From Trueperella sp. (GTDB lineage: Bacteria; Actinomycetota; Actinomycetes; Actinomycetales; Actinomycetaceae), in the NCBI GenBank assembly GCA_030532125.1, contig JAUNLU010000003.1, positions 26,491 to 90,490 of the forward strand: DNA of 64,000 nt, read 5' to 3'. Of this stretch, positions 45,488 to 54,566 are shown piece by piece (the stretch's first letter is position 1; each line of letters begins with the position of its first letter). The position numbers were made by a program, and so were the translations under genes. The notes under the pieces are model-generated. The model searched no databases, was not told where the DNA came from, and saw only the letters and a program-made list of their open reading frames with translations.

Positions 45488-45982
45488 ATGGCTGAAAATA
45501 ATTATGCTGCGGATGACATGGACGTACTGGATTTTGCCAAGATTGTAAGTCTCTTACCTCCATATCTGCCTATTACTGACGACTTCATAGCGCAAATAAG
45601 TGGAACTGACGAGCGGCCAGAGCGCTCCGAGCGGGAACATATGGTGGGTTGGTACCAAGGGCAAGCCACCACTGGCAGCGGCCAGTACACCAGAAATGTA
45701 CCCAATCGATCAGCCAAAAGAGCTTATAACCGGCTACTTAACCCAGCGTCAGTATTGTGGATCGCGGAAGCAGTTGGCGTAGACGAACAGCTAGTAAGGG
45801 AAGCTGCTGCCAAAGCCCTGGCGGAACCGGCTTGGCGCAGCCGGCCGCGCGTTGCCCGCGAAGTCCTCCCTTGGGAGTTGGTGTTTGAAAAAGCTAAACA
45901 CCTGCCTAAATCAGCTTTCATACTGAGCAAAGGTAAGGGCTACGCTTTGCCGCGCCTGGGGCTACGCCGTCATCACCGCTGA
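45488..45982 (+). CDS. Hypothetical protein
   Basis: 164-aa ORF with coding-like composition and no motif I recognise. It is convergent with res. Confidence 0.5.
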   Translation: MAENNYAADDMDVLDFAKIVSLLPPYLPITDDFIAQISGTDERPERSEREHMVGWYQGQATTGSGQYTRNVPNRSAKRAYNRLLNPASVLWIAEAVGVDEQLVREAAAKALAEPAWRSRPRVAREVLPWELVFEKAKHLPKSAFILSKGKGYALPRLGLRRHHR

Positions 45983-46078: not shown

Positions 46079-48667
46079 CTACAGAGCGTTACTGACCGGG
46101 CTAGCGAAGGTTTTCAGATCTTCCCAGGAGTCAGCGCGGGCAGTGTCTTCCTCGTATGCGATGAGGTAGCCCCAGTGTTGACCAGCGTAGGCTTCCTCAG
46201 CGACCAGGCGTCGCACCAGTGCTTCGGCGGCCTTGCGTTTAGCCTGCACCTGGGTGTCATCGCGGCCTCGCTCTGATTTTCCTTCGATGATCCAGTGCAC
46301 ACCATTGGTGTCCAGGGCAACAAAGTCTGGAAAGTAACGATCCTTGGCGTTGTAGTACACGAACGCTTGGTCTTGCGGGTGCAGGCGATGCCACCAGACG
46401 ATGCCTGGTGAAGTGTTGAGCAGGCGGGCGAGTTGATATTCGCCAGTGAAGGAGTCAAATGATTCTTCAGCGAATAGCGACTTGAACCAGCCTCTATAGA
46501 CTCGACCGCGTACGAACTGCGCGCGGGTCTCAATCTGATCATGTACTTTCTCACCCAGTGGGAGCACATAGCCATCACCTGGCATCTGCTTGGGGTGAAT
46601 GCTGGGTACCTCGCGAGTGGCCCGCAGGGTTTCGGTTGTGTAGTTCTTGATTAGCGTCAGCAGCTCGGTACGAGCAGAGTCGAGGGATTTGACTGTCCAT
46701 CCAGTAAATGTCACGGCTTGCATAAACTTCGGTACCAGGAACGTAGCTACATAGCGAGCAGTCTGTTCGGTCTTGGGCACTAGCGGCATATTGATGACCA
46801 GCTTGTTCAACGCATCTTGTGCATCAGCATCATCAACGTGGACGGAGTCAACCTCGGCACTTTCACGATCCTCCGCCCACAGTTTCTTACCTAGCGCGGC
46901 AATGATCTCCTTACGCAATAGCACATCTCCAGTGGAGGTAACCCGCCGAGCCGCCTGCTCAATCTCAGAGCCACTGATCTCGGATAGGTCAATAGGCGGT
47001 TGCTGTACTCTCATCATCGTCACTGGGAACTGGTACGAAACATCAGCGAAGCGAGGGTTGCGTTCGATCGACACAAGTTCCCAGGTGGGTTCTTCCTCTG
47101 GGTTGGTGATGGTACGAACTCCGACACTGGGTAAACCCTCACTCGGGCCGTCACTGCTGCTGACGGCAACAGTACCCGGCTGCGGGGCTAAGCCAGTGGC
47201 CTCACCACTGGAATCGGTGCCCGCCCCAGGCAGTATCGCACCGACAGCTTGACCGCCACGATCGGTCATGGCTACATCTGCACCTGTGCCGGATGCTTCA
47301 GCGGCTTTGCGGATCGCCTCATCAACTTTGGCCTTATCGAGTTCGGGAACAGCTTCGTCTAGGCCGAACTGTTGGAGCACATTCTCAGCATTGAGCAGCT
47401 CGGTAAAGGACTGGTGGGCTATGATGTCGAGCTGGTCGATCTGCCACACACCCGTATATTTCCCAAACGGCAGGCGTAGGCCGCGCCCCATCGTCTGTTG
47501 GGTCAGCACCTCTGATGCCATCGCCCGCAGCGTCACAACGACAGCGATATTCTTGACATCCCACCCTTCTTTGAGCTTGTTCACACTCACTACCGCTAGG
47601 ACGGGTGATTCGGGCCGATCCAGTTCGTCCAGGCGACGTTGGGTCAGCTCGTCTTCATGCTTGGAGTCCACCTGCAACACGGCCTCATCGCGACCTAAAT
47701 ATTCAGGGGTACGCAAAAGCTCGGCGACCTGGCTGGCATGTTCAACATCCGAACACACCACAAATACAACCGCATTTACCCGGGAGTGGTTTTGACTGGC
47801 CGCATAAGAGTCATAGTAGATCTGCTTGAGCGAGCGCAGCTGTAACGCGTCCCGCAGCTGCTGTTCCTCGGAGGCTTCGTCGGTTCCGTATCCGGTTTTG
47901 CGGAAAGCCAACACTGGAGCCTTGACGTACTTGTCCTGGATGGCTCGGTAGAGCGGGTATTCGAAAATAACGTGATCGGTCTTCTTGTCCACCGACGCGG
48001 TCAAACCAATAGTAGCCGCCGGGTCGAGTTCCTTAAGTGCCGCGTTGAACGCCACTGCACTCGACCCGTACAGGTGGGACTCGTCGGCGATCACCACCAA
48101 ATCGTCAAGATTTTTCAGGTAGTCGAAGAGCACGCCTGCGTTCTCATCAAACCGGCGGGGTTTGCGGCGCATTGCTTCCTGGGTGCCACCATGGGTATCG
48201 CCCTCGGCATCTTTTGGCGCGATCAACTGCTGGATGTTGAAGATGAACGCCAGCACCGGCACCTCATTGCCCAACGCAAACTGAGCCGCGCCGTTCTGCC
48301 GAGCTATCCACGTGGAATAGTCCTGTGGGGTCACCACCTCAGGTGGCACTGCCGAGCCAGTGATATAGCGAGGCGATCCCGATTTGAAATTCTGCACCGT
48401 CTTCGCCTGCACCGTCTTGCCCGGGGTAACAATTACGACGTTACCTACACCTTGGCGGCGCAGATACTCCACAAACGCCGCCATCAAATACGTCTTGCCC
48501 ACACCGGTAGCCAGGTTGAGCACCTGCATCACGGCCGGGTCATAGTCACCGTCGAGAGTGAAAATCAGCTGGCGCAGTGCCTCTTTGTTCGGGGCGCGCA
48601 GATCGAACTCGGAGCTGATCGACTCCAACATATCCGAATCAAAACTGATATTGAGCCTGCTTGTCAT
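46079..48667 (-). CDS. res: Type III restriction enzyme, Res subunit (SF2 helicase plus PD-ExK nuclease)
   Basis: Walker A-like LATGVGKTY, DEAH-type VIADESH, helicase motif VI QTMGRGLR and a C-terminal nuclease motif (YFPDFVAL...WIIEGK). Its start overlaps the mod stop as ATGA. Confidence 0.88.
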   Translation of the reverse strand: MTSRLNISFDSDMLESISSEFDLRAPNKEALRQLIFTLDGDYDPAVMQVLNLATGVGKTYLMAAFVEYLRRQGVGNVVIVTPGKTVQAKTVQNFKSGSPRYITGSAVPPEVVTPQDYSTWIARQNGAAQFALGNEVPVLAFIFNIQQLIAPKDAEGDTHGGTQEAMRRKPRRFDENAGVLFDYLKNLDDLVVIADESHLYGSSAVAFNAALKELDPAATIGLTASVDKKTDHVIFEYPLYRAIQDKYVKAPVLAFRKTGYGTDEASEEQQLRDALQLRSLKQIYYDSYAASQNHSRVNAVVFVVCSDVEHASQVAELLRTPEYLGRDEAVLQVDSKHEDELTQRRLDELDRPESPVLAVVSVNKLKEGWDVKNIAVVVTLRAMASEVLTQQTMGRGLRLPFGKYTGVWQIDQLDIIAHQSFTELLNAENVLQQFGLDEAVPELDKAKVDEAIRKAAEASGTGADVAMTDRGGQAVGAILPGAGTDSSGEATGLAPQPGTVAVSSSDGPSEGLPSVGVRTITNPEEEPTWELVSIERNPRFADVSYQFPVTMMRVQQPPIDLSEISGSEIEQAARRVTSTGDVLLRKEIIAALGKKLWAEDRESAEVDSVHVDDADAQDALNKLVINMPLVPKTEQTARYVATFLVPKFMQAVTFTGWTVKSLDSARTELLTLIKNYTTETLRATREVPSIHPKQMPGDGYVLPLGEKVHDQIETRAQFVRGRVYRGWFKSLFAEESFDSFTGEYQLARLLNTSPGIVWWHRLHPQDQAFVYYNAKDRYFPDFVALDTNGVHWIIEGKSERGRDDTQVQAKRKAAEALVRRLVAEEAYAGQHWGYLIAYEEDTARADSWEDLKTFASPVSNAL

Positions 48668-50682
48668 TGCTGACCACCACCTTCGCTGTAGCGGAACACA
48701 TCATCTGGTAGCGCAACCACTCGCGACCCCTTCACTGCACGCCGCAGATGCTGGCGTACCCCATCCATCACCGCGGTGGCGGCCAGCACGATCGTCTCCC
48801 CAGGCTGGATTTGGGAGGCCAGCCAGTCCGCAATCTCGATTGTGGCCACGCCCTCAACCACCTTCAACAATGCGTTGCCACGGCGGGCATCAAACACGTA
48901 GTCATCATCGGGATGCAACAGCGTGAACCCAAGATTGGCAGCCACTGACTCGATCAAAGTCTGTCCAGTCGCAGCCGCCGTCAGCATCACCCGATCTAAC
49001 TCAGGGTCGTAATCGAAACAGGCTGGCGACAGGTGTGCCACCTGGAAACCGCCCCCGCCACGCCAGTTCACTACTTCTTTCGTGCGTCTGGTCTTCGAGG
49101 CAGCCTTCAGGGCTTTGACGCGCGGATCTTTCTTTGCTTCCGGATCATCAGCAATCAGCTTGTTCAACACTGACGTAAACTTCGCAGCATCTTCTGGACT
49201 GACGCCATCAGGTAGCCCATCTTCCGTCGCGTCGACTCGTTCGCCCTTAGTGCGAGTTACGCCACCCGGATCCTGGTCACTAACAACCTTAGTAAGTCGT
49301 GGCTTGGTAAAACGCTCGAAAGTATCCTCCACCAGTTCGCACGTCACCCAACGCCGGCCCATCTTCTGCGCCACCGCAGCAGTCGTACCCGAACCAGCAA
49401 ACACATCCAACACAATATCGCCCGGGTTAGACCCGATATGAATAATGCGCTCAAGCAATTTTTCTGGTTTAGGCGTGCTGAAAGGGGTAGCGTTTGGGAA
49501 CAGTGTCTTGATCTCATTTTTAGCACTACGGTTATGGCCGACCTCGGTATTGTCCCACCAAGTTCGAGGCGGGGTGCCTCGACTTGGGATATACGTTTTC
49601 AGCCCAATTCCTCCGCTGCTTCCATTAGAACCTCGCAACAACAAGCGAGGAAGTGGAATCTGCGCCATTCTTTTGGTAGCAAATTGGACGTCGCTTTCAT
49701 TCCAATCAGGTATGATCATCTTAGGAATATCTGACCGGATCTCAACGCCTTGCCCTTCAATCTCTGCCCGCTTGCAGAGCTCATTTTCATCGGGGGCAGT
49801 AAGTTGGTAACGTCCCCAATCGCGCATTAGTTCGAGCATAGTATCTTGAGAAAAATACCAATTTGCGTTTTTTCCTGGGTAAACCATTTGCCCAGTAATT
49901 GGGTGTTGAATGCCATAGACACTAGGGTGCTGTTTTTCAGCTAATGCGTGGCGAGCTGTCGGATCCCCATCCCACCATGGCCCGTTTGGATCTTCATCAG
50001 GATTCTTAAATCTTGCGTTGTCCGAAGCGCTTCGAAGCATACGATTAGGTATGAAAAACTCATTTTTTCGATAAACGATTATTATATCTTGATCAGTAGA
50101 AAAGCCTTCACTGTTATTGCGTGGTCCATCAGCCTTTTGCCAAACAACTTCTGCTACAAAATTCTGCGCTCCAAATACTTCGTCCAGAAGCAATCGCATA
50201 CGATGGACTTCCACGTCGTCCAAGTGCACCCAAATTGAGCCGTCGTCTGCGAGCAGCCTCTTGAGATGTAACAATCTGTCGCGCATCATGGTGAGCCACA
50301 CTGAATGCTCGAGGTTATCCTCGTAGTTCGCGAAGGTCTGTGCGGTATTGAATGGCGGATCAATGTAGATCAGTTTGACCTTGCCCAGGTACTTCTCCGC
50401 TAGCTCGGGTACGCGAGTTAGGGCTTCGAGTACGTCTCCAGATTCACCGAGAATTAATAAGTTATCTTCTTGGGGTTCCAGGTCAGCGCGCTCGGAGTAT
50501 TCAAACTTCTCATCTTTAGGGCTTTGCACGCCCTGAACGTAGTCGTCGTAGATGAGGGTGTGAGTTTCGCAGTAGCGCGGATCAGAGGGATCAACCCACG
50601 TGTAACCGTATTTGCCCGTCTCGGTGGGGATGAGGGCTTTGTCTTTGTTGTACCAGGTCAGCTGCAAGCGTTGTGCGGCCAT
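48664..50682 (-). CDS. mod: Type III restriction-modification DNA methyltransferase, Mod subunit (beta-class N6A/N4C)
   Basis: Motif IV IYIDPPFNT precedes motif I VLDVFAGSGTTAAV (beta-class order). The LTWYNKDK N-terminus is typical of Type III Mod, and the gene is translationally coupled to res. Confidence 0.9.
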   Translation of the reverse strand: MAAQRLQLTWYNKDKALIPTETGKYGYTWVDPSDPRYCETHTLIYDDYVQGVQSPKDEKFEYSERADLEPQEDNLLILGESGDVLEALTRVPELAEKYLGKVKLIYIDPPFNTAQTFANYEDNLEHSVWLTMMRDRLLHLKRLLADDGSIWVHLDDVEVHRMRLLLDEVFGAQNFVAEVVWQKADGPRNNSEGFSTDQDIIIVYRKNEFFIPNRMLRSASDNARFKNPDEDPNGPWWDGDPTARHALAEKQHPSVYGIQHPITGQMVYPGKNANWYFSQDTMLELMRDWGRYQLTAPDENELCKRAEIEGQGVEIRSDIPKMIIPDWNESDVQFATKRMAQIPLPRLLLRGSNGSSGGIGLKTYIPSRGTPPRTWWDNTEVGHNRSAKNEIKTLFPNATPFSTPKPEKLLERIIHIGSNPGDIVLDVFAGSGTTAAVAQKMGRRWVTCELVEDTFERFTKPRLTKVVSDQDPGGVTRTKGERVDATEDGLPDGVSPEDAAKFTSVLNKLIADDPEAKKDPRVKALKAASKTRRTKEVVNWRGGGGFQVAHLSPACFDYDPELDRVMLTAAATGQTLIESVAANLGFTLLHPDDDYVFDARRGNALLKVVEGVATIEIADWLASQIQPGETIVLAATAVMDGVRQHLRRAVKGSRVVALPDDVFRYSEGGGQQ

Positions 50683-50760
50683 CTAGTTGGTCTCTCCCTT
50701 CGTCTCTGTAAGCACGACTTCGCAAATGTCGGCGATATCGCAGTTGAGTGCTTGGCAGAT
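50683..50760 (-). pseudogene. 3' stub of a small XRE/YozG-like HTH regulator gene
   Basis: The minus strand reads ICQALNCDIADICEVVLTETKGETN-stop. It is in frame directly after the herA TGA, and its TAG directly abuts the mod ATG. The L..IC.AL.C...DI.E pattern is the usual C-terminus of ~70-aa Cro/C1-type HTH proteins. Confidence 0.5.
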
Positions 50761-52713
50761 TCAGAATGGTGGTTCATCGAGCTTTTCATCTGACTCAGAC
50801 TCCGCTATCAGCGATTTCCTCCACTCAGTTGTTACCGACATAGTACGACTGTTGGGCTCAGCATAGGGTGGGAGTTTACCAATTCGGGTAATCACTGGAA
50901 CTTGGACAGAAACTCCCGCTAGGACGCACGTCCCTGTTGGGAGAATTGGAAGCGATTCGAATGATACGCGGTCAAGGTAGGTTACTGCCTTTTCAATTGC
51001 CTGTACATCGAGATCGTTCACAAGCCGGTGGATGAAGTAATTGTGGAGCTGGGAAATAATCGTAGGTGATATATCATGTGGTCGCTGGCTTGCCAATGTC
51101 AAGAATACGCCAAACTTACGCCCCTCTTTGACAATCTCTTCAAACGTTTCCAAGCGGTAGTCTCTCCATGCTTCGCTTTCCCGTGATGACTGCAACGACA
51201 AGATGTTGTGTGCTTCATCAATTATGAGGTTCAGATACTTCTGCCCACAGGTATCCATTCGCTTCTTGTTATCGTAGAGATGTTTACAGAGAATCATGGG
51301 GATAACCTTGCGCATGGCAAGATTTACGTTCCTAAGCGACACAACAGTCAAGGGAACTTTAGTCAATTCATCATCGGACACTCGAATGAGGAGTTTAATG
51401 CTGGGCACTCTCTCGTGTAGACGCTTAATCATGGGACCCAGATGTTCTCTGTTCGCGAAGCCACTGATTACATCCCAGTAGTACTGGAGCACCAGTTTGA
51501 AGCGGACTAAGTCAATGTCGTCGACCGAGGAAAAGTCCTGCTTGATATTCGCAACCTTGCTCTTGATGAAATCATTCCAGTTAGCATCTGTCGCCCATCT
51601 TCTACTATTGTCATCTTGCGAAATCCAGAAGAAGTCGTGGTTCTTACTGTGATATTGAAGCTGGTTGCGCATCTCTTCAATCAGTGACGAAAGATCTTCA
51701 TGATCGACATTGTTACCGAGACACTCTTTAATATCTTCCAGAAAGTTAATCGGAAGCTGCCTATCTATCGCCCCATCGTTGCTCTTTGTTGCTCGGGCGA
51801 CAAGATCTCCAATAACATCGAGAAGCGCCTCAGGTTTTCGAAGCAGGGTACTCCAGTAGTCACTTTTAAGTACACGAGATATAAACGGTGCTTGAGTCTT
51901 CTCAGTCGCATCAAGTAAAACCGTCCAGAAGACCGGATCATGGACAGCTGCCTTTGGCAAGGGAAGGCGGTCTCCCTGGTCATTGTAGGTCGAAAGATCA
52001 TAAACCTGTTTTACATCGTCATCAGCAATCACGGATTTTGCATACTCGTCAACATCGTCGTCTCTGTTTACATACTCACCGTTGAAGTCAATCAAAACAA
52101 ACTGAGATCGTTGCCTAAATGTTTTGTTATGCCCATACTTTTTGAGAAGTTCGTGGTAGAGCTTTGCGAGTGTATAGGACTTACCACTTCCGGTATTCCC
52201 GAAGATGCCAATGTGACTAGCAAAGATTGCGTTAACTCCGACTTCCACCGCCTGCGTTGGATCCATCGCCAGTGTGCCGATCGCTAATGGTTCGTCACTA
52301 CTGGAGACAAATGTGTGAATGAGTCTGAATTCTTTCTCTGTAAGTATGAAGCACTCGTTGTCAAGAAGCGGCATTTCGCGTACACCGCGTTTGAAGCGCC
52401 CTCCTTCGATGTAGCCTATGAGGCTCACGTCTAGCTGACGAGACAGCGGATCTACGTCACGACGATATTCTGCCGTCGCACTGTAGTCTTCTTCGACTAC
52501 CTCACCGTCAACCTTGGCAATCAATTCAACGAAGCCCTTGGCGATTTTTATATAGCTCGAAACAGCTACATTTCGTACCAGACTGCCCCTATATAAAAGA
52601 TGTGAACCGTTCTTGAGTTTGTCAACAGCGATACGCACTCGCCGGCCGTTTACAGATATCACTCGCCCGATGCGAAAAACTGCGTCATGGTCAAGGTCAA
52701 CTTCCTTAATCAC
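50761..52713 (-). CDS. herA: HerA-like (FtsK/HerA superfamily, DUF87-type) ATPase, partner of SIR2
   Basis: N-terminal barrel-like segment (FRIGRVISVNGRRVRIAV), Walker A GNTGSGKS, Walker B LNLIIDEAHN and ASQRP. The GTG start overlaps the SIR2 stop (GTGA) and follows a GGAG SD. Confidence 0.85.
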   Translation of the reverse strand: MIKEVDLDHDAVFRIGRVISVNGRRVRIAVDKLKNGSHLLYRGSLVRNVAVSSYIKIAKGFVELIAKVDGEVVEEDYSATAEYRRDVDPLSRQLDVSLIGYIEGGRFKRGVREMPLLDNECFILTEKEFRLIHTFVSSSDEPLAIGTLAMDPTQAVEVGVNAIFASHIGIFGNTGSGKSYTLAKLYHELLKKYGHNKTFRQRSQFVLIDFNGEYVNRDDDVDEYAKSVIADDDVKQVYDLSTYNDQGDRLPLPKAAVHDPVFWTVLLDATEKTQAPFISRVLKSDYWSTLLRKPEALLDVIGDLVARATKSNDGAIDRQLPINFLEDIKECLGNNVDHEDLSSLIEEMRNQLQYHSKNHDFFWISQDDNSRRWATDANWNDFIKSKVANIKQDFSSVDDIDLVRFKLVLQYYWDVISGFANREHLGPMIKRLHERVPSIKLLIRVSDDELTKVPLTVVSLRNVNLAMRKVIPMILCKHLYDNKKRMDTCGQKYLNLIIDEAHNILSLQSSRESEAWRDYRLETFEEIVKEGRKFGVFLTLASQRPHDISPTIISQLHNYFIHRLVNDLDVQAIEKAVTYLDRVSFESLPILPTGTCVLAGVSVQVPVITRIGKLPPYAEPNSRTMSVTTEWRKSLIAESESDEKLDEPPF

Positions 52714-54035
52714 CAGGAGTCTCCTTCACGAGGTGCGAACGTCAGATTCGATTCGCTCATCAGGTCAAGAGTCTCTTCAGACATGATTGGTGCTAAGTAA
52801 TCGGATACGAGCACGTCAAGGCTGATCTTTCGTTCTTCCTCGTCCTCACTTGATTTGTCGGGGGCTACGATTTCGATATTGCCATTCTTAACTTCCACAT
52901 CTGGCAAGAGCTGCTTGAATAATTCTAGGTCTTTTTCCGAATAGCAGAACACAATAACCTGCAGTGTAGGGTTTGTTCGGGCTGCTCGAAGCACAAGATC
53001 GCGAAGGTGCTCATCGCGAAAGGAAAAACCGTGTACAAAAAGTACACTGTTCTCTTTTTCCAGTTCGTTAGCCAATCGCCGAATTAATTCGTAATAAGTT
53101 TCGTTCAGTACGGTAGTTGCAAACTTACGCTTATCTGGGTTAACAATCCCAAGCTCGTCGTATTTTGTCGAGAACTTTTCGACAACGGCGGGTAGCACCG
53201 CATCCTCTATTGATTCTGCTTGTTTACTATTATTTTTGAGGTATTCATTCGCCTCAGTGATCATCATGTTAATTGGGCGTATTTTCGGCCCCTCGGACTG
53301 GGGGTAAGACTCCACAGTCACAGGGATCAAGTATTGTTTCGCTTCTTGGAGCAGGCAATTAATTGTTTTCACAAGAGTCAAACCATGGTCGAAATATATG
53401 TCGAACTTGCCATTTTCTCGCTTAACTTGGCACCATGCTGCTGACCCATGGATCTTGATTAGGTTGAATACGGGTACCTCGAACCGGTGCCCATACCTGC
53501 TGCTAGTTTGGAAACGAAGCGCTCCAAATTCACCAAGGTTAAATTTGGGACGGATTTTACCGCTAAATCCATCACAGTAGTCAATGCCCAATTCTTCCAT
53601 TGAGACTTCGAAGAGCATGTCTACGTTTGTGGTGAATATGTTCACCTGCTTCGGTAGAAGGGTACTCCGCCTGCAGAGCAAAATACGATTTAGTGTCCGT
53701 AAGAATCTCACATAAGACTGTAGAACACTATCTGCTTCGTCGCTATGTTCGATAACTTGCAAGTTTGGCACAAGGACTTTTTCAAAAAAGTACGCTTGAA
53801 TTGAAGCACGAACAAGTCCTTTGATGTTTTGTGGAGCATTACTATTCGCGAGTTCTTCGAGAGCATCTTCTATATTACCCAACGCAGAAAAATATGAACT
53901 AGGTGTTCCTGCGCCGATCAGGAAATTCAGATGAGCAGACTCGACAATCACTCTCAACCGTTCTGAAGTGAGACAACTGAATCGGGTCTCAGCAACTTCC
54001 TGCTGTGCTAAACCGTTCACGCGAATCTGAGTCAC
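52710..54035 (-). CDS. SIR2-family NADase-like defence protein
   Basis: FLIGAGTPSS (Rossmann GAG), TTNVD, KIHGS (catalytic His) and GFSFRDEH motifs of the SIR2_2-type family. The start is taken at GTG 54035, 6 nt after a GGAGG SD. The ORF-track ATG at 54071 is the alternative. Confidence 0.85.
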   Translation of the reverse strand: MTQIRVNGLAQQEVAETRFSCLTSERLRVIVESAHLNFLIGAGTPSSYFSALGNIEDALEELANSNAPQNIKGLVRASIQAYFFEKVLVPNLQVIEHSDEADSVLQSYVRFLRTLNRILLCRRSTLLPKQVNIFTTNVDMLFEVSMEELGIDYCDGFSGKIRPKFNLGEFGALRFQTSSRYGHRFEVPVFNLIKIHGSAAWCQVKRENGKFDIYFDHGLTLVKTINCLLQEAKQYLIPVTVESYPQSEGPKIRPINMMITEANEYLKNNSKQAESIEDAVLPAVVEKFSTKYDELGIVNPDKRKFATTVLNETYYELIRRLANELEKENSVLFVHGFSFRDEHLRDLVLRAARTNPTLQVIVFCYSEKDLELFKQLLPDVEVKNGNIEIVAPDKSSEDEEERKISLDVLVSDYLAPIMSEETLDLMSESNLTFAPREGDSW

Positions 54036-54443
54036 TCGTAACCTCCAAGATCTCCTGAAGTAAAAATGCATGCATACAGTTGATTTCTTGAATCTAACAG
54101 TTATTTAGTGGTTCACGCTGGCATCGTATTAACACTCGACTTTTATATGGTTCAGCAATGCTCCACACATTTGCTGGAAACTGTTAGGAACTTCAACTAT
54201 ATGGTTCATATTGAACCGCATTGACCAATAGAATATGCAGTTCATAGAACTATCTAAGGTTATAGCTCCGCTGCGACCATACTGCATTTCCATAGATGAA
54301 AAAGACCGGTCCTGGACTCCCACCAAAGCGGGCAGCGGAACCGGTCATGTTGCTGCCATCATAGTTCATATTCGCTACAGAGACCAGAGATTTCACCCAC
54401 ACCGTGTTCGCTTTTAATGCGCCAGGAGCGCATTACTACTAGG

Positions 54444-54484
54444 CAAAAAAGAGGAACCGCCCTAGCTTTTAGCAGCTAGAGCGG
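54444..54484 (-). terminator. Rho-independent terminator downstream of tRNA-Ala
   Basis: The minus strand reads CCGCTCTAGC-tgctaaaa-GCTAGGGCGG (10 bp including one G-U), followed by TTCCTCTTTTTT. Confidence 0.8.
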
Positions 54485-54490
54485 AAAAAT

Positions 54491-54566
54491 TGGTGGAGCA
54501 TAGGGGATTCGAACCCCTGACCTCTTCCATGCCATGGAAGCGCGCTACCAACTGCGCCAATGCCCC
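54491..54566 (-). tRNA. tRNA-Ala (anticodon GGC)
   Basis: The reverse complement folds as a 76-nt cloverleaf: acceptor GGGGCAT/ATGCTCC with G3:U70, anticodon arm CTTCC-ATGGCAT-GGAAG, T-arm AGGGG-TTCGAAT-CCCCT, and an encoded CCA. Confidence 0.93.

Follow-up and report, generated by a model that had tools for sequence, protein, structure and literature searches.

In a 64,000-nucleotide (nt) stretch of DNA from Trueperella sp. (contig JAUNLU010000003.1 of assembly GCA_030532125.1; "the window" below denotes this whole stretch), a SIR2-HerA defense gene pair lies directly in front of a Type III restriction-modification (R-M) module, and the 78 nt between herA and the methyltransferase gene mod are very probably a pseudogene fragment, namely, the 3' third of a small HTH_26 gene (VanU-like, Cro/C1-type) that was joined to herA by recombination. 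An initial annotation, made from the sequence alone, had taken these nucleotides to be the stub of a helix-turn-helix (HTH) regulator gene and a likely insertion scar, and this interpretation was essentially correct. The genes and sites at the boundary were as follows.

52710 to 54071, minus strand: SIR2-domain gene, 453 amino acids (aa), overlapping the start of herA by 4 nt (PDLC04080, E = 1.2e-51).
50761 to 52713, minus strand: herA, 650 aa (PADLOC HerA PDLC04097, E = 1.9e-169).
50760 to 50761, minus strand: recombination junction, where herA closes with the final base of its native stop codon (50761) and HTH homology begins (50760).
50683 to 50760, minus strand: HTH_26 gene remnant (the stub), comprising the last 25 codons and TAG (profile searches, DNA alignment, and nucleotide identity).
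50692 to 50700, minus strand: Shine-Dalgarno (SD)-like sequence AAGGGAGAG of mod, at -18 to -10 and within the KGE codons of the stub (read from the sequence and conserved in all aligned relatives).
48664 to 50682, minus strand: Type III mod, 672 aa, apparently intact (PADLOC MTase_III PDLC03636, E = 2.9e-192; full-length alignment with relatives of 663 to 671 aa).
46079 to 48667, minus strand: Type III res, 862 aa (as long as its relatives); its start overlaps the mod stop by 4 nt (REase_III, E = 1.1e-61).

On the minus strand, the herA TGA (50763 to 50761) was followed immediately by 25 in-frame codons, ICQALNCDIADICEVVLTETKGETN (50760 to 50686), and the TAG that ends them (50685 to 50683) directly abutted the mod ATG (50682 to 50680), giving TAGATG, exactly to the base as first described. 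The herA open reading frame (ORF) of 650 codons ended, before its TGA, in SESDEKLDEPPF. The stub contained no internal stop codon or indel; it lacked a start codon and the HTH motif, and a TGA stood immediately 5' of it.

The assignment of the stub to the C terminus of a small Cro/C1-type protein was borne out by three profile comparisons. Searched alone, the stub matched the last helix and tail of the Pfam domain HTH_26 (PF13443; positions 46 to 61 of 63, E = 0.0025, 18.5 bits) and positions 50 to 68 of 75 in the NCBIfam model VanU (E = 0.01), so that a family match was found where its absence would have spoken against the annotation; against a profile built from nine intact relatives, it aligned over positions 50 to 74 of 74 (E = 2.8e-13). 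Its score was below the HTH_26 gathering score of 22 bits, as expected of a fragment, and intact relatives scored 53 to 73 bits. By sequence criteria, the stub is classed as a fragment of an HTH_26 member and not as a member itself: compared with the small Cro/C1-type regulators of that family, the window copy lacks the first 49 codons, the helix-turn-helix, and the start codon. The HTH proteins of the intact relatives matched HTH_26 at E = 2e-20 and the structure 3TYR at E = 1.6e-17; 3TYR/3TYS, a VanU-like "predicted transcriptional regulator," is the closest solved structure.

The missing part was not found elsewhere. When six intact HTH proteins were compared with the whole window by tblastn, only the stub was recovered (E = 5e-12), all other matches having E values of >0.1, and residues 1 to 49 had no match anywhere in the 64 kb, including the region upstream of SIR2, where a simple insertion would have left the displaced 5' part. 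The loss of the 5' two-thirds of the gene was thus as the annotation had proposed. Because codons 1 to 49 are absent from the window, the event was a deletion or replacement rather than a simple insertion, and of the proposed insertion scar, the recombination scar stands and the simple insertion does not.

The ancestral gene order HTH-mod-res, which the annotation had postulated and had suggested seeking in relatives, was found in at least 13 related loci. The comparison set consisted of 79 species-level loci encoding Mod homologs, mostly from Actinomycetota; 11 of the 79 carried an intact HTH_26 ORF of 74 to 81 aa whose stop codon abuts the mod ATG as in the window, and the same intact arrangement was present in locus L233 (Mod 80% identical) and in Cutibacterium acnes. 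An example is the protein preceding mod in Gleimia hominis, VTITFKPLWKLLIDREMTREDLRHATGLSAATIAKLGRGGNVTTDVLSRICKALNCDIADICEVVLTDTKGETD, which is followed by its stop codon. In C. acnes, the order CTD6-MC2-AAA_23 (Lamassu)-HTH_26-Mod-Res-recombinase occurred in approximately 1,965 index blocks. The order HTH-mod-res was also present on the Bacillus badius plasmid pPM400, where the HTH protein is 55% identical, its stop abuts the mod ATG, and the three genes are annotated as HTH regulator, methyltransferase, and type III endonuclease.

When the window was aligned at the DNA level with 12 intact loci, homology ran from ATCTGC (50760) onward, and the sequence 5' of that point was herA, unrelated to the HTH genes. 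The stub was 71 to 87% identical in nucleotides to the pre-mod sequence of the 12 relatives, and the first 300 nt of mod were 76 to 81% identical. The ratio of synonymous to nonsynonymous codon differences was approximately 1:1 in the stub versus approximately 3.5:1 in mod, which hints weakly that constraint has been relaxed and that the event is fairly recent, numbers of this size being too small for proof of either.

The junction was also approached from the herA side. In 39 close HerA proteins, an acidic tail was followed by a terminal PF in all but two, mostly as PPF. The window HerA ends in DEKLDEPPF after an acidic tail (50764 to 50820, minus strand) approximately 11 aa shorter than that of its relatives, and since the PPF end is kept, the TGA at 50763 to 50761 is the native stop. 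DNA homology between this cassette and three other cassettes ended approximately 60 to 70 nt from the stop, in the divergent tail-coding region, and the sequences directly after the four herA stop codons were mutually unrelated. Because cassette homology ends near the herA stop and HTH homology begins at 50760, the junction lies at 50761/50760, give or take a couple of bases, which completes the breakpoint mapping from aligned loci that had been proposed. The tetranucleotide TCTG occurs on both sides of the junction (TTCTGA|ATCTGC); a classic microhomology join was rejected, since both copies are retained.

The stub did not belong to the herA side. It was absent beside herA in all 80 distant HerA loci and in all 6 close ones (78 to 80% identity), where herA was followed by a recombinase fragment, a truncated GH10 gene, or a 56-aa ORF plus a DEAD helicase and never by the stub or by mod; the annotation had named herA homologs with the same 78 nt as the finding that would overturn it. 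A rival view, in which the 78 nt belong natively to the SIR2-HerA cassette as its 3' flank or resemble an HTH gene by chance, and in either case are unrelated to mod, had in its favor only the in-frame position and the stub score below the gathering threshold. It is refuted by the 86 stub-free HerA loci, by the DNA identity to the pre-mod sequence of the 12 relatives, and by the alignment of the stub in register with the relatives' intact HTH genes, and we give it virtually no chance. The in-frame position carries no weight alone, since its prior probability is 1 in 3, and with nothing found beyond PPF in the HerA relatives, it is most simply read as a coincidence.

A second case of a scar exactly at a herA stop was observed in locus L226 (4677 to 8341), where a close SIR2-HerA pair stands after brxL of a BREX system, which it overlaps by 4 nt, and a 129-aa fragment of a GH10 glycosidase gene directly follows the herA stop.

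How the HTH gene was lost in general was examined with a DNA profile of the intact HTH gene plus the start of mod, which was searched by nhmmer against the upstream regions of all loci. The points at which homology starts, as distances from the mod ATG, were as follows.

About -214 to -225: 14 loci with a full-length HTH region (the intact genes plus the frameshifted L010).
-137: L004.
-121: L043.
-84 as reported, -78 by eye: the window.
-72: L231, the closest Mod relative (89% identity), with different upstream DNA, at which its assemblies break.
-69: L071.
-65: L038, with an internal deletion between two GCGACAT repeats.
-53: L067.
-46 to -27: eleven further loci.
-22 to -14: a group keeping little beyond the SD.
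0 or later: loci without upstream homology.

Most related mod-res pairs had no HTH gene. In total, 18 loci had 5'-eroded remnants, of 27 to 137 nt in a continuous size range and with varied upstream neighbors, and a single breakpoint hot spot was rejected, the nhmmer series being a continuum. The upstream neighbors across loci included Lamassu LmuA/LmuB, a DUF2326 ATPase, AbiD, Fic, Hypoth_Ymh, DUF4062, an Mrr-like nuclease, an MmeI fragment, RhuM, and permease or housekeeping genes. To judge from these alignments, 5' erosion of the HTH gene has occurred many times, and loss of the gene is common rather than dramatic. The stub is thus an ordinary recombination scar in a defense island and one case of a recurrent pattern. 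The module was seen intact, frameshifted, internally deleted, and 5' eroded, which provides a series, dated by sequence, of the rebuilding of defense islands at gene boundaries.

Two members of the series were informative in their own right. In Actinomyces graevenitzii (L038, 5869 to 5997), HTH codons from approximately 18 to 55 were lost in frame between two copies of GCGACAT, which makes this a textbook case of deletion by microhomology. The closest Mod relative (89%; L231, 1 to 126, and L232, 1 to 26) has an HTH stub of its own, which starts approximately 6 nt 3' of the window breakpoint; the four assemblies that carry this relative all break 26 to 126 nt upstream of mod, a pattern suggestive of a repeated element at that place.

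In the eroded loci, homology never ended nearer to mod than about -14 before falling to zero, and the SD of mod is probably the part of the remnant that is still under selection. The series in this way illustrates which few nucleotides, those of the mod ribosome-binding site, selection keeps; this site is likely the only part of the 78 nt that still functions. No promoter-like or terminator-like site was found in 50683 to 50760, an Rfam scan of the spacer gave no match, and the spacer RNA was less structured than shuffled controls (z = +1.6).

A function of the stub itself, whether as an extension of HerA past the TGA, as a short peptide from the internal GTG, or as the carrier of a promoter or operator for mod, was weighed against the same data. 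Its position in frame with herA, its freedom from internal stops and indels, a divergence not above that of mod, and the tens of nucleotides that remnants in other species also retain would be compatible with such a role, but the in-frame position has its prior of 1 in 3, the HerA relatives end at PPF, no SD precedes the internal GTG, and no promoter-like site was found. In addition, remnant lengths are continuous down to about 14 to 27 nt, which implies that no element between -78 and -27 is required. A functional stub is quite improbable, and the 78 nt should not be annotated as a gene or as an extension of herA.

The following history best accounts for the recombination scar. In the ancestral module, the HTH gene very probably stood directly upstream of the Type III mod-res genes and was translationally coupled to them, its stop abutting the mod ATG. 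One recombination or deletion event then joined the native herA stop of the lower-GC SIR2-HerA pair to HTH codon 50, removing the helix-turn-helix part and everything upstream of it, so that the remnant can no longer encode a DNA-binding protein. Two reasons for its retention can be proposed: the last approximately 20 nt would serve as the mod ribosome-binding site, given that a deletion reaching the translation start of mod would silence the methyltransferase beside an active endonuclease and be lethal, and the other approximately 57 nt may simply not have decayed yet. The stub thus shows that recombination brought the two adjacent defense systems together at the cost of a regulator gene.

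As to present expression, SIR2, herA, mod, and res now form a head-to-tail series on one strand, with an unstructured, terminator-free gap of 78 nt between the two pairs. Since the four genes are co-oriented and no terminator was found in this gap, mod-res is most likely transcribed at least partly by read-through from SIR2-herA. Translation of mod may now depend on its own SD instead of on coupling to the HTH ORF. The annotation had further supposed that the HTH gene was lost along with its own promoter, which is less certain: in most intact relatives, the upstream defense gene overlaps the HTH start by 4 to 11 nt, so the HTH gene often has no room for a private promoter. Because of this usual overlap, autoregulation of the HTH gene from its own promoter is doubtful.

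Several observations weigh against this reconstruction. The stub is no more diverged than the adjacent mod, which fits either a recent event or an unrecognized constraint on all 78 nt. Consensus promoter scans are uninformative for Actinomycetota, and the match count was at chance level. The sole argument for read-through is the absence of a terminator. The junction falls precisely on a stop codon, a tighter placement than random illegitimate recombination would give, and this is unexplained. Finally, the data fit more than one order of events (SIR2-HerA into a resident R-M module, the reverse, or both as one block).

On the last point, composition favors SIR2-HerA as the newcomer. The GC contents were 0.446 for SIR2, 0.467 for herA, 0.513 for the stub, 0.521 for mod, 0.563 for res, and 0.555 for the flanks, so that the cassette is indeed lower in GC than mod and res, as first noted, and stands at 0.45 to 0.47 versus 0.555 for its surroundings. 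The same scar could have arisen with the opposite polarity, by insertion of a 5'-truncated HTH-mod-res block downstream of a resident SIR2-HerA pair or by assembly of the whole array in another Actinomycetaceae genome and its arrival as one island by the tRNA-Ala gene. The two systems share a variable region that follows tRNA-Ala(GGC) on its 3' side and has no counterpart in related genera; SIR2-HerA relatives (78 to 80%) also stand downstream of tRNA-Ala in Boudabousia and in an oral metagenome contig, so the pair could be an older resident; homology with related mod-res blocks ends at the res stop codon, as sharply as for a mobile block; and the closest Mod relative already has a truncated stub. 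However, SIR2-HerA is the compositional outlier and res matches the genome GC, no att repeats or integrase delimit a single island, and the L231 stub, with its more 3' start and different upstream DNA, represents a separate event. We give the opposite polarity an appreciable chance, at less than even odds.

An origin of the scar from a decayed insertion sequence or transposon that carried in SIR2-HerA is unlikely. Defense cassettes are often mobilized, the contig breaks upstream of mod in the closest Mod relative hint at a repeat element, and a recombinase fragment adjoins SIR2-HerA in Boudabousia. Against such an origin, neither terminal inverted repeats nor target-site duplications were detected around the cassette, no ORF of the window between the tRNA and res encodes a transposase, integrase, or recombinase domain, and the homology among cassettes breaks off at the stop codon without any flanking element DNA.

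A search by way of the flanking HisPhos gene revealed no conspecific or close genome whose site is empty or still has the whole HTH gene, the nearest housekeeping relatives being approximately 55 to 67% identical. A megablast search of the 8.4-kb region against Escherichia coli genomes and plasmids returned nothing, and exact matches to the window proteins were found in only one other assembly, from the same sample.

Whether the lost gene encoded a controller of the R-M genes was considered next to the known controller (C) proteins C.PvuII, C.AhdI, C.Esp1396I, and C.Csp231I. The intact relatives, not the window copy, have the small HTH gene directly upstream of and co-oriented with the R-M genes, which resembles the C protein arrangement. 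The HTH_26 gene differs in that it precedes mod rather than the nuclease gene and shows no similarity to solved C proteins, and most related mod-res pairs do not have it. In a phmmer search of an intact HTH relative against all PDB chains (E ≤ 1), only 3TYR (VanU-like), ClgR, and QseC were returned, and C.AhdI, C.Esp1396I, C.Csp231I, and C.BclI were not. A scan of the 100 to 250 nt upstream of the HTH gene in five loci yielded no C-box-like inverted repeats (≥10 nt, within 30 nt), although an operator could lie farther away, the upstream gene mostly overlapping the HTH start. Of the earlier proposal that the R-M operon has lost its controller, a small HTH gene heading the R-M genes in relatives is thus upheld, and the likeness to solved C proteins is not. 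In a 2025 review of R-M systems (PMC12707154), the C proteins listed belong to Type II systems and, in one case, to a Type I system, with no Type III system among them.

HTH homologs were also found to head a helicase/DUF4391/methyltransferase system in Enterococcus, a BREX-1 operon in Ligilactobacillus, and a Type III R-M system in Bacillus. Because homologs head R-M, methyltransferase-type, and BREX operons, it is plausible that the HTH_26 protein regulates modification-based defense operons. More tentatively, the lost gene may belong to a class of regulators not yet described (VanU-like HTH_26 proteins, translationally coupled to mod and ranging from Actinomycetota to Bacillota) for Type III R-M and other modification-based operons, with the 5' edge of the gene acting as a recurrent cassette exchange point at which the regulator is often destroyed. 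If this is true, the exchange here brought an abortive-infection system and an R-M system into a single transcript and removed the original control. VanU-like HTH proteins heading Type III R-M, BREX, and related operons in two phyla are a modest lead for R-M regulation, and this lead and the comparative series make up the modest added value of the case.

Both flanking systems were assigned by gene content. The adjacent SIR2-domain and HerA DUF87 ATPase genes, with strong PADLOC and NCBIfam matches, correspond to a SIR2-HerA defense system, and the co-oriented Mod and Res genes, with the Pfam domains N6_N4_Mtase and ResIII, correspond to a Type III R-M system. Like the SIR2-HerA antiphage system (e.g., PMC11472057 and PMC11514289), the window pair, a predicted defense system, consists of two overlapping genes for SIR2 and HerA; the one unusual feature detected was the shortened acidic tail before PPF. 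A whole-database protein search found HerA relatives 64 to 80% identical in Boudabousia, Microbacterium, Agromyces, Mycobacteroides, and other taxa, Actinomycetaceae among them. A pattern-based scan had returned only relatives of ≤45% identity, from Bacteroidota and CPR, and the idea that SIR2-HerA is alien to Actinomycetota, which derived from that scan, was dropped on finding the 64 to 80% relatives; the pattern-based locus finder had missed all HerA relatives of >45% identity, and the taxonomic distribution should not be based on such a scan alone.

The cassettes found directly before the Type III R-M block were Lamassu/ABC-3C, a DUF2326 ATPase, AbiD, Fic, and, here, SIR2-HerA. Varied co-oriented cassettes before the same Type III R-M block resemble the embedding of defense systems described by Payne et al. 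(bioRxiv 10.1101/2024.01.29.577857), who analyzed Hma, BREX, DISARM, and Type I R-M systems and not Type III. The window differs in that the cassette stands beside the R-M genes and not between them and in that the junction destroyed a module gene. The scar fits the view of defense loci as sinks that stack and exchange co-oriented cassettes (bioRxiv 10.1101/2024.01.29.577857). In L237 (C. acnes), L233, L013, L028, and L032, Lamassu/ABC-3C, HTH_26, and Mod-Res form a tight co-oriented array of overlapping or abutting genes; this array, very common in C. acnes, is followed by a convergent recombinase fragment in L237 and L233.

At its upstream edge, the variable island is delimited by two further features.

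54491 to 54566, minus strand: tRNA-Ala(GGC), the upstream edge of the variable island with both defense systems (rsfS-HisPhos-tRNA-Ala synteny).
54457 to 54484, minus strand: terminator-like hairpin directly after the tRNA, followed by a low-GC spacer (54072 to 54456) up to SIR2.

The order rsfS-HisPhos-tRNA-Ala was kept in Arcanobacterium, Actinobaculum, and Varibaculum; beyond the tRNA, however, the DNA was unrelated. No second copy of the tRNA-Ala 3' end (att-like direct repeats) was found, and neither were repeats bounding the cassette. In a Logan assembly of the same sample, a contig break falls between HisPhos and SIR2. The closest SIR2-HerA pairs (78 to 80%) lie 0.8 to 1.9 kb downstream of tRNA-Ala(CGC), at L225 (3796 to 3871) in Boudabousia tangfeifanii and L227 (2752 to 2825) in the oral metagenome contig, which hints that this cassette family travels with or accumulates at tRNA-Ala sites.

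At the other end of the R-M module, a 164-aa ORF (45488 to 45982, plus strand) is convergent with res and had no Pfam match; it has no similarity to the recombinase found after res in C. acnes and L233, and its origin from such a gene was rejected. In Bifidobacterium sp. H1HS16N (L029, 1142 to 5586), ORFs of 615 and 866 aa stand directly upstream of the matched Mod gene, and two tandem Type III R-M systems are possible, as judged by size alone. Within the window mod, the center of the gene (49400 to 50400) has a GC content of 43 to 49% in an otherwise 52 to 58% gene, which is consistent with a swapped target recognition domain.

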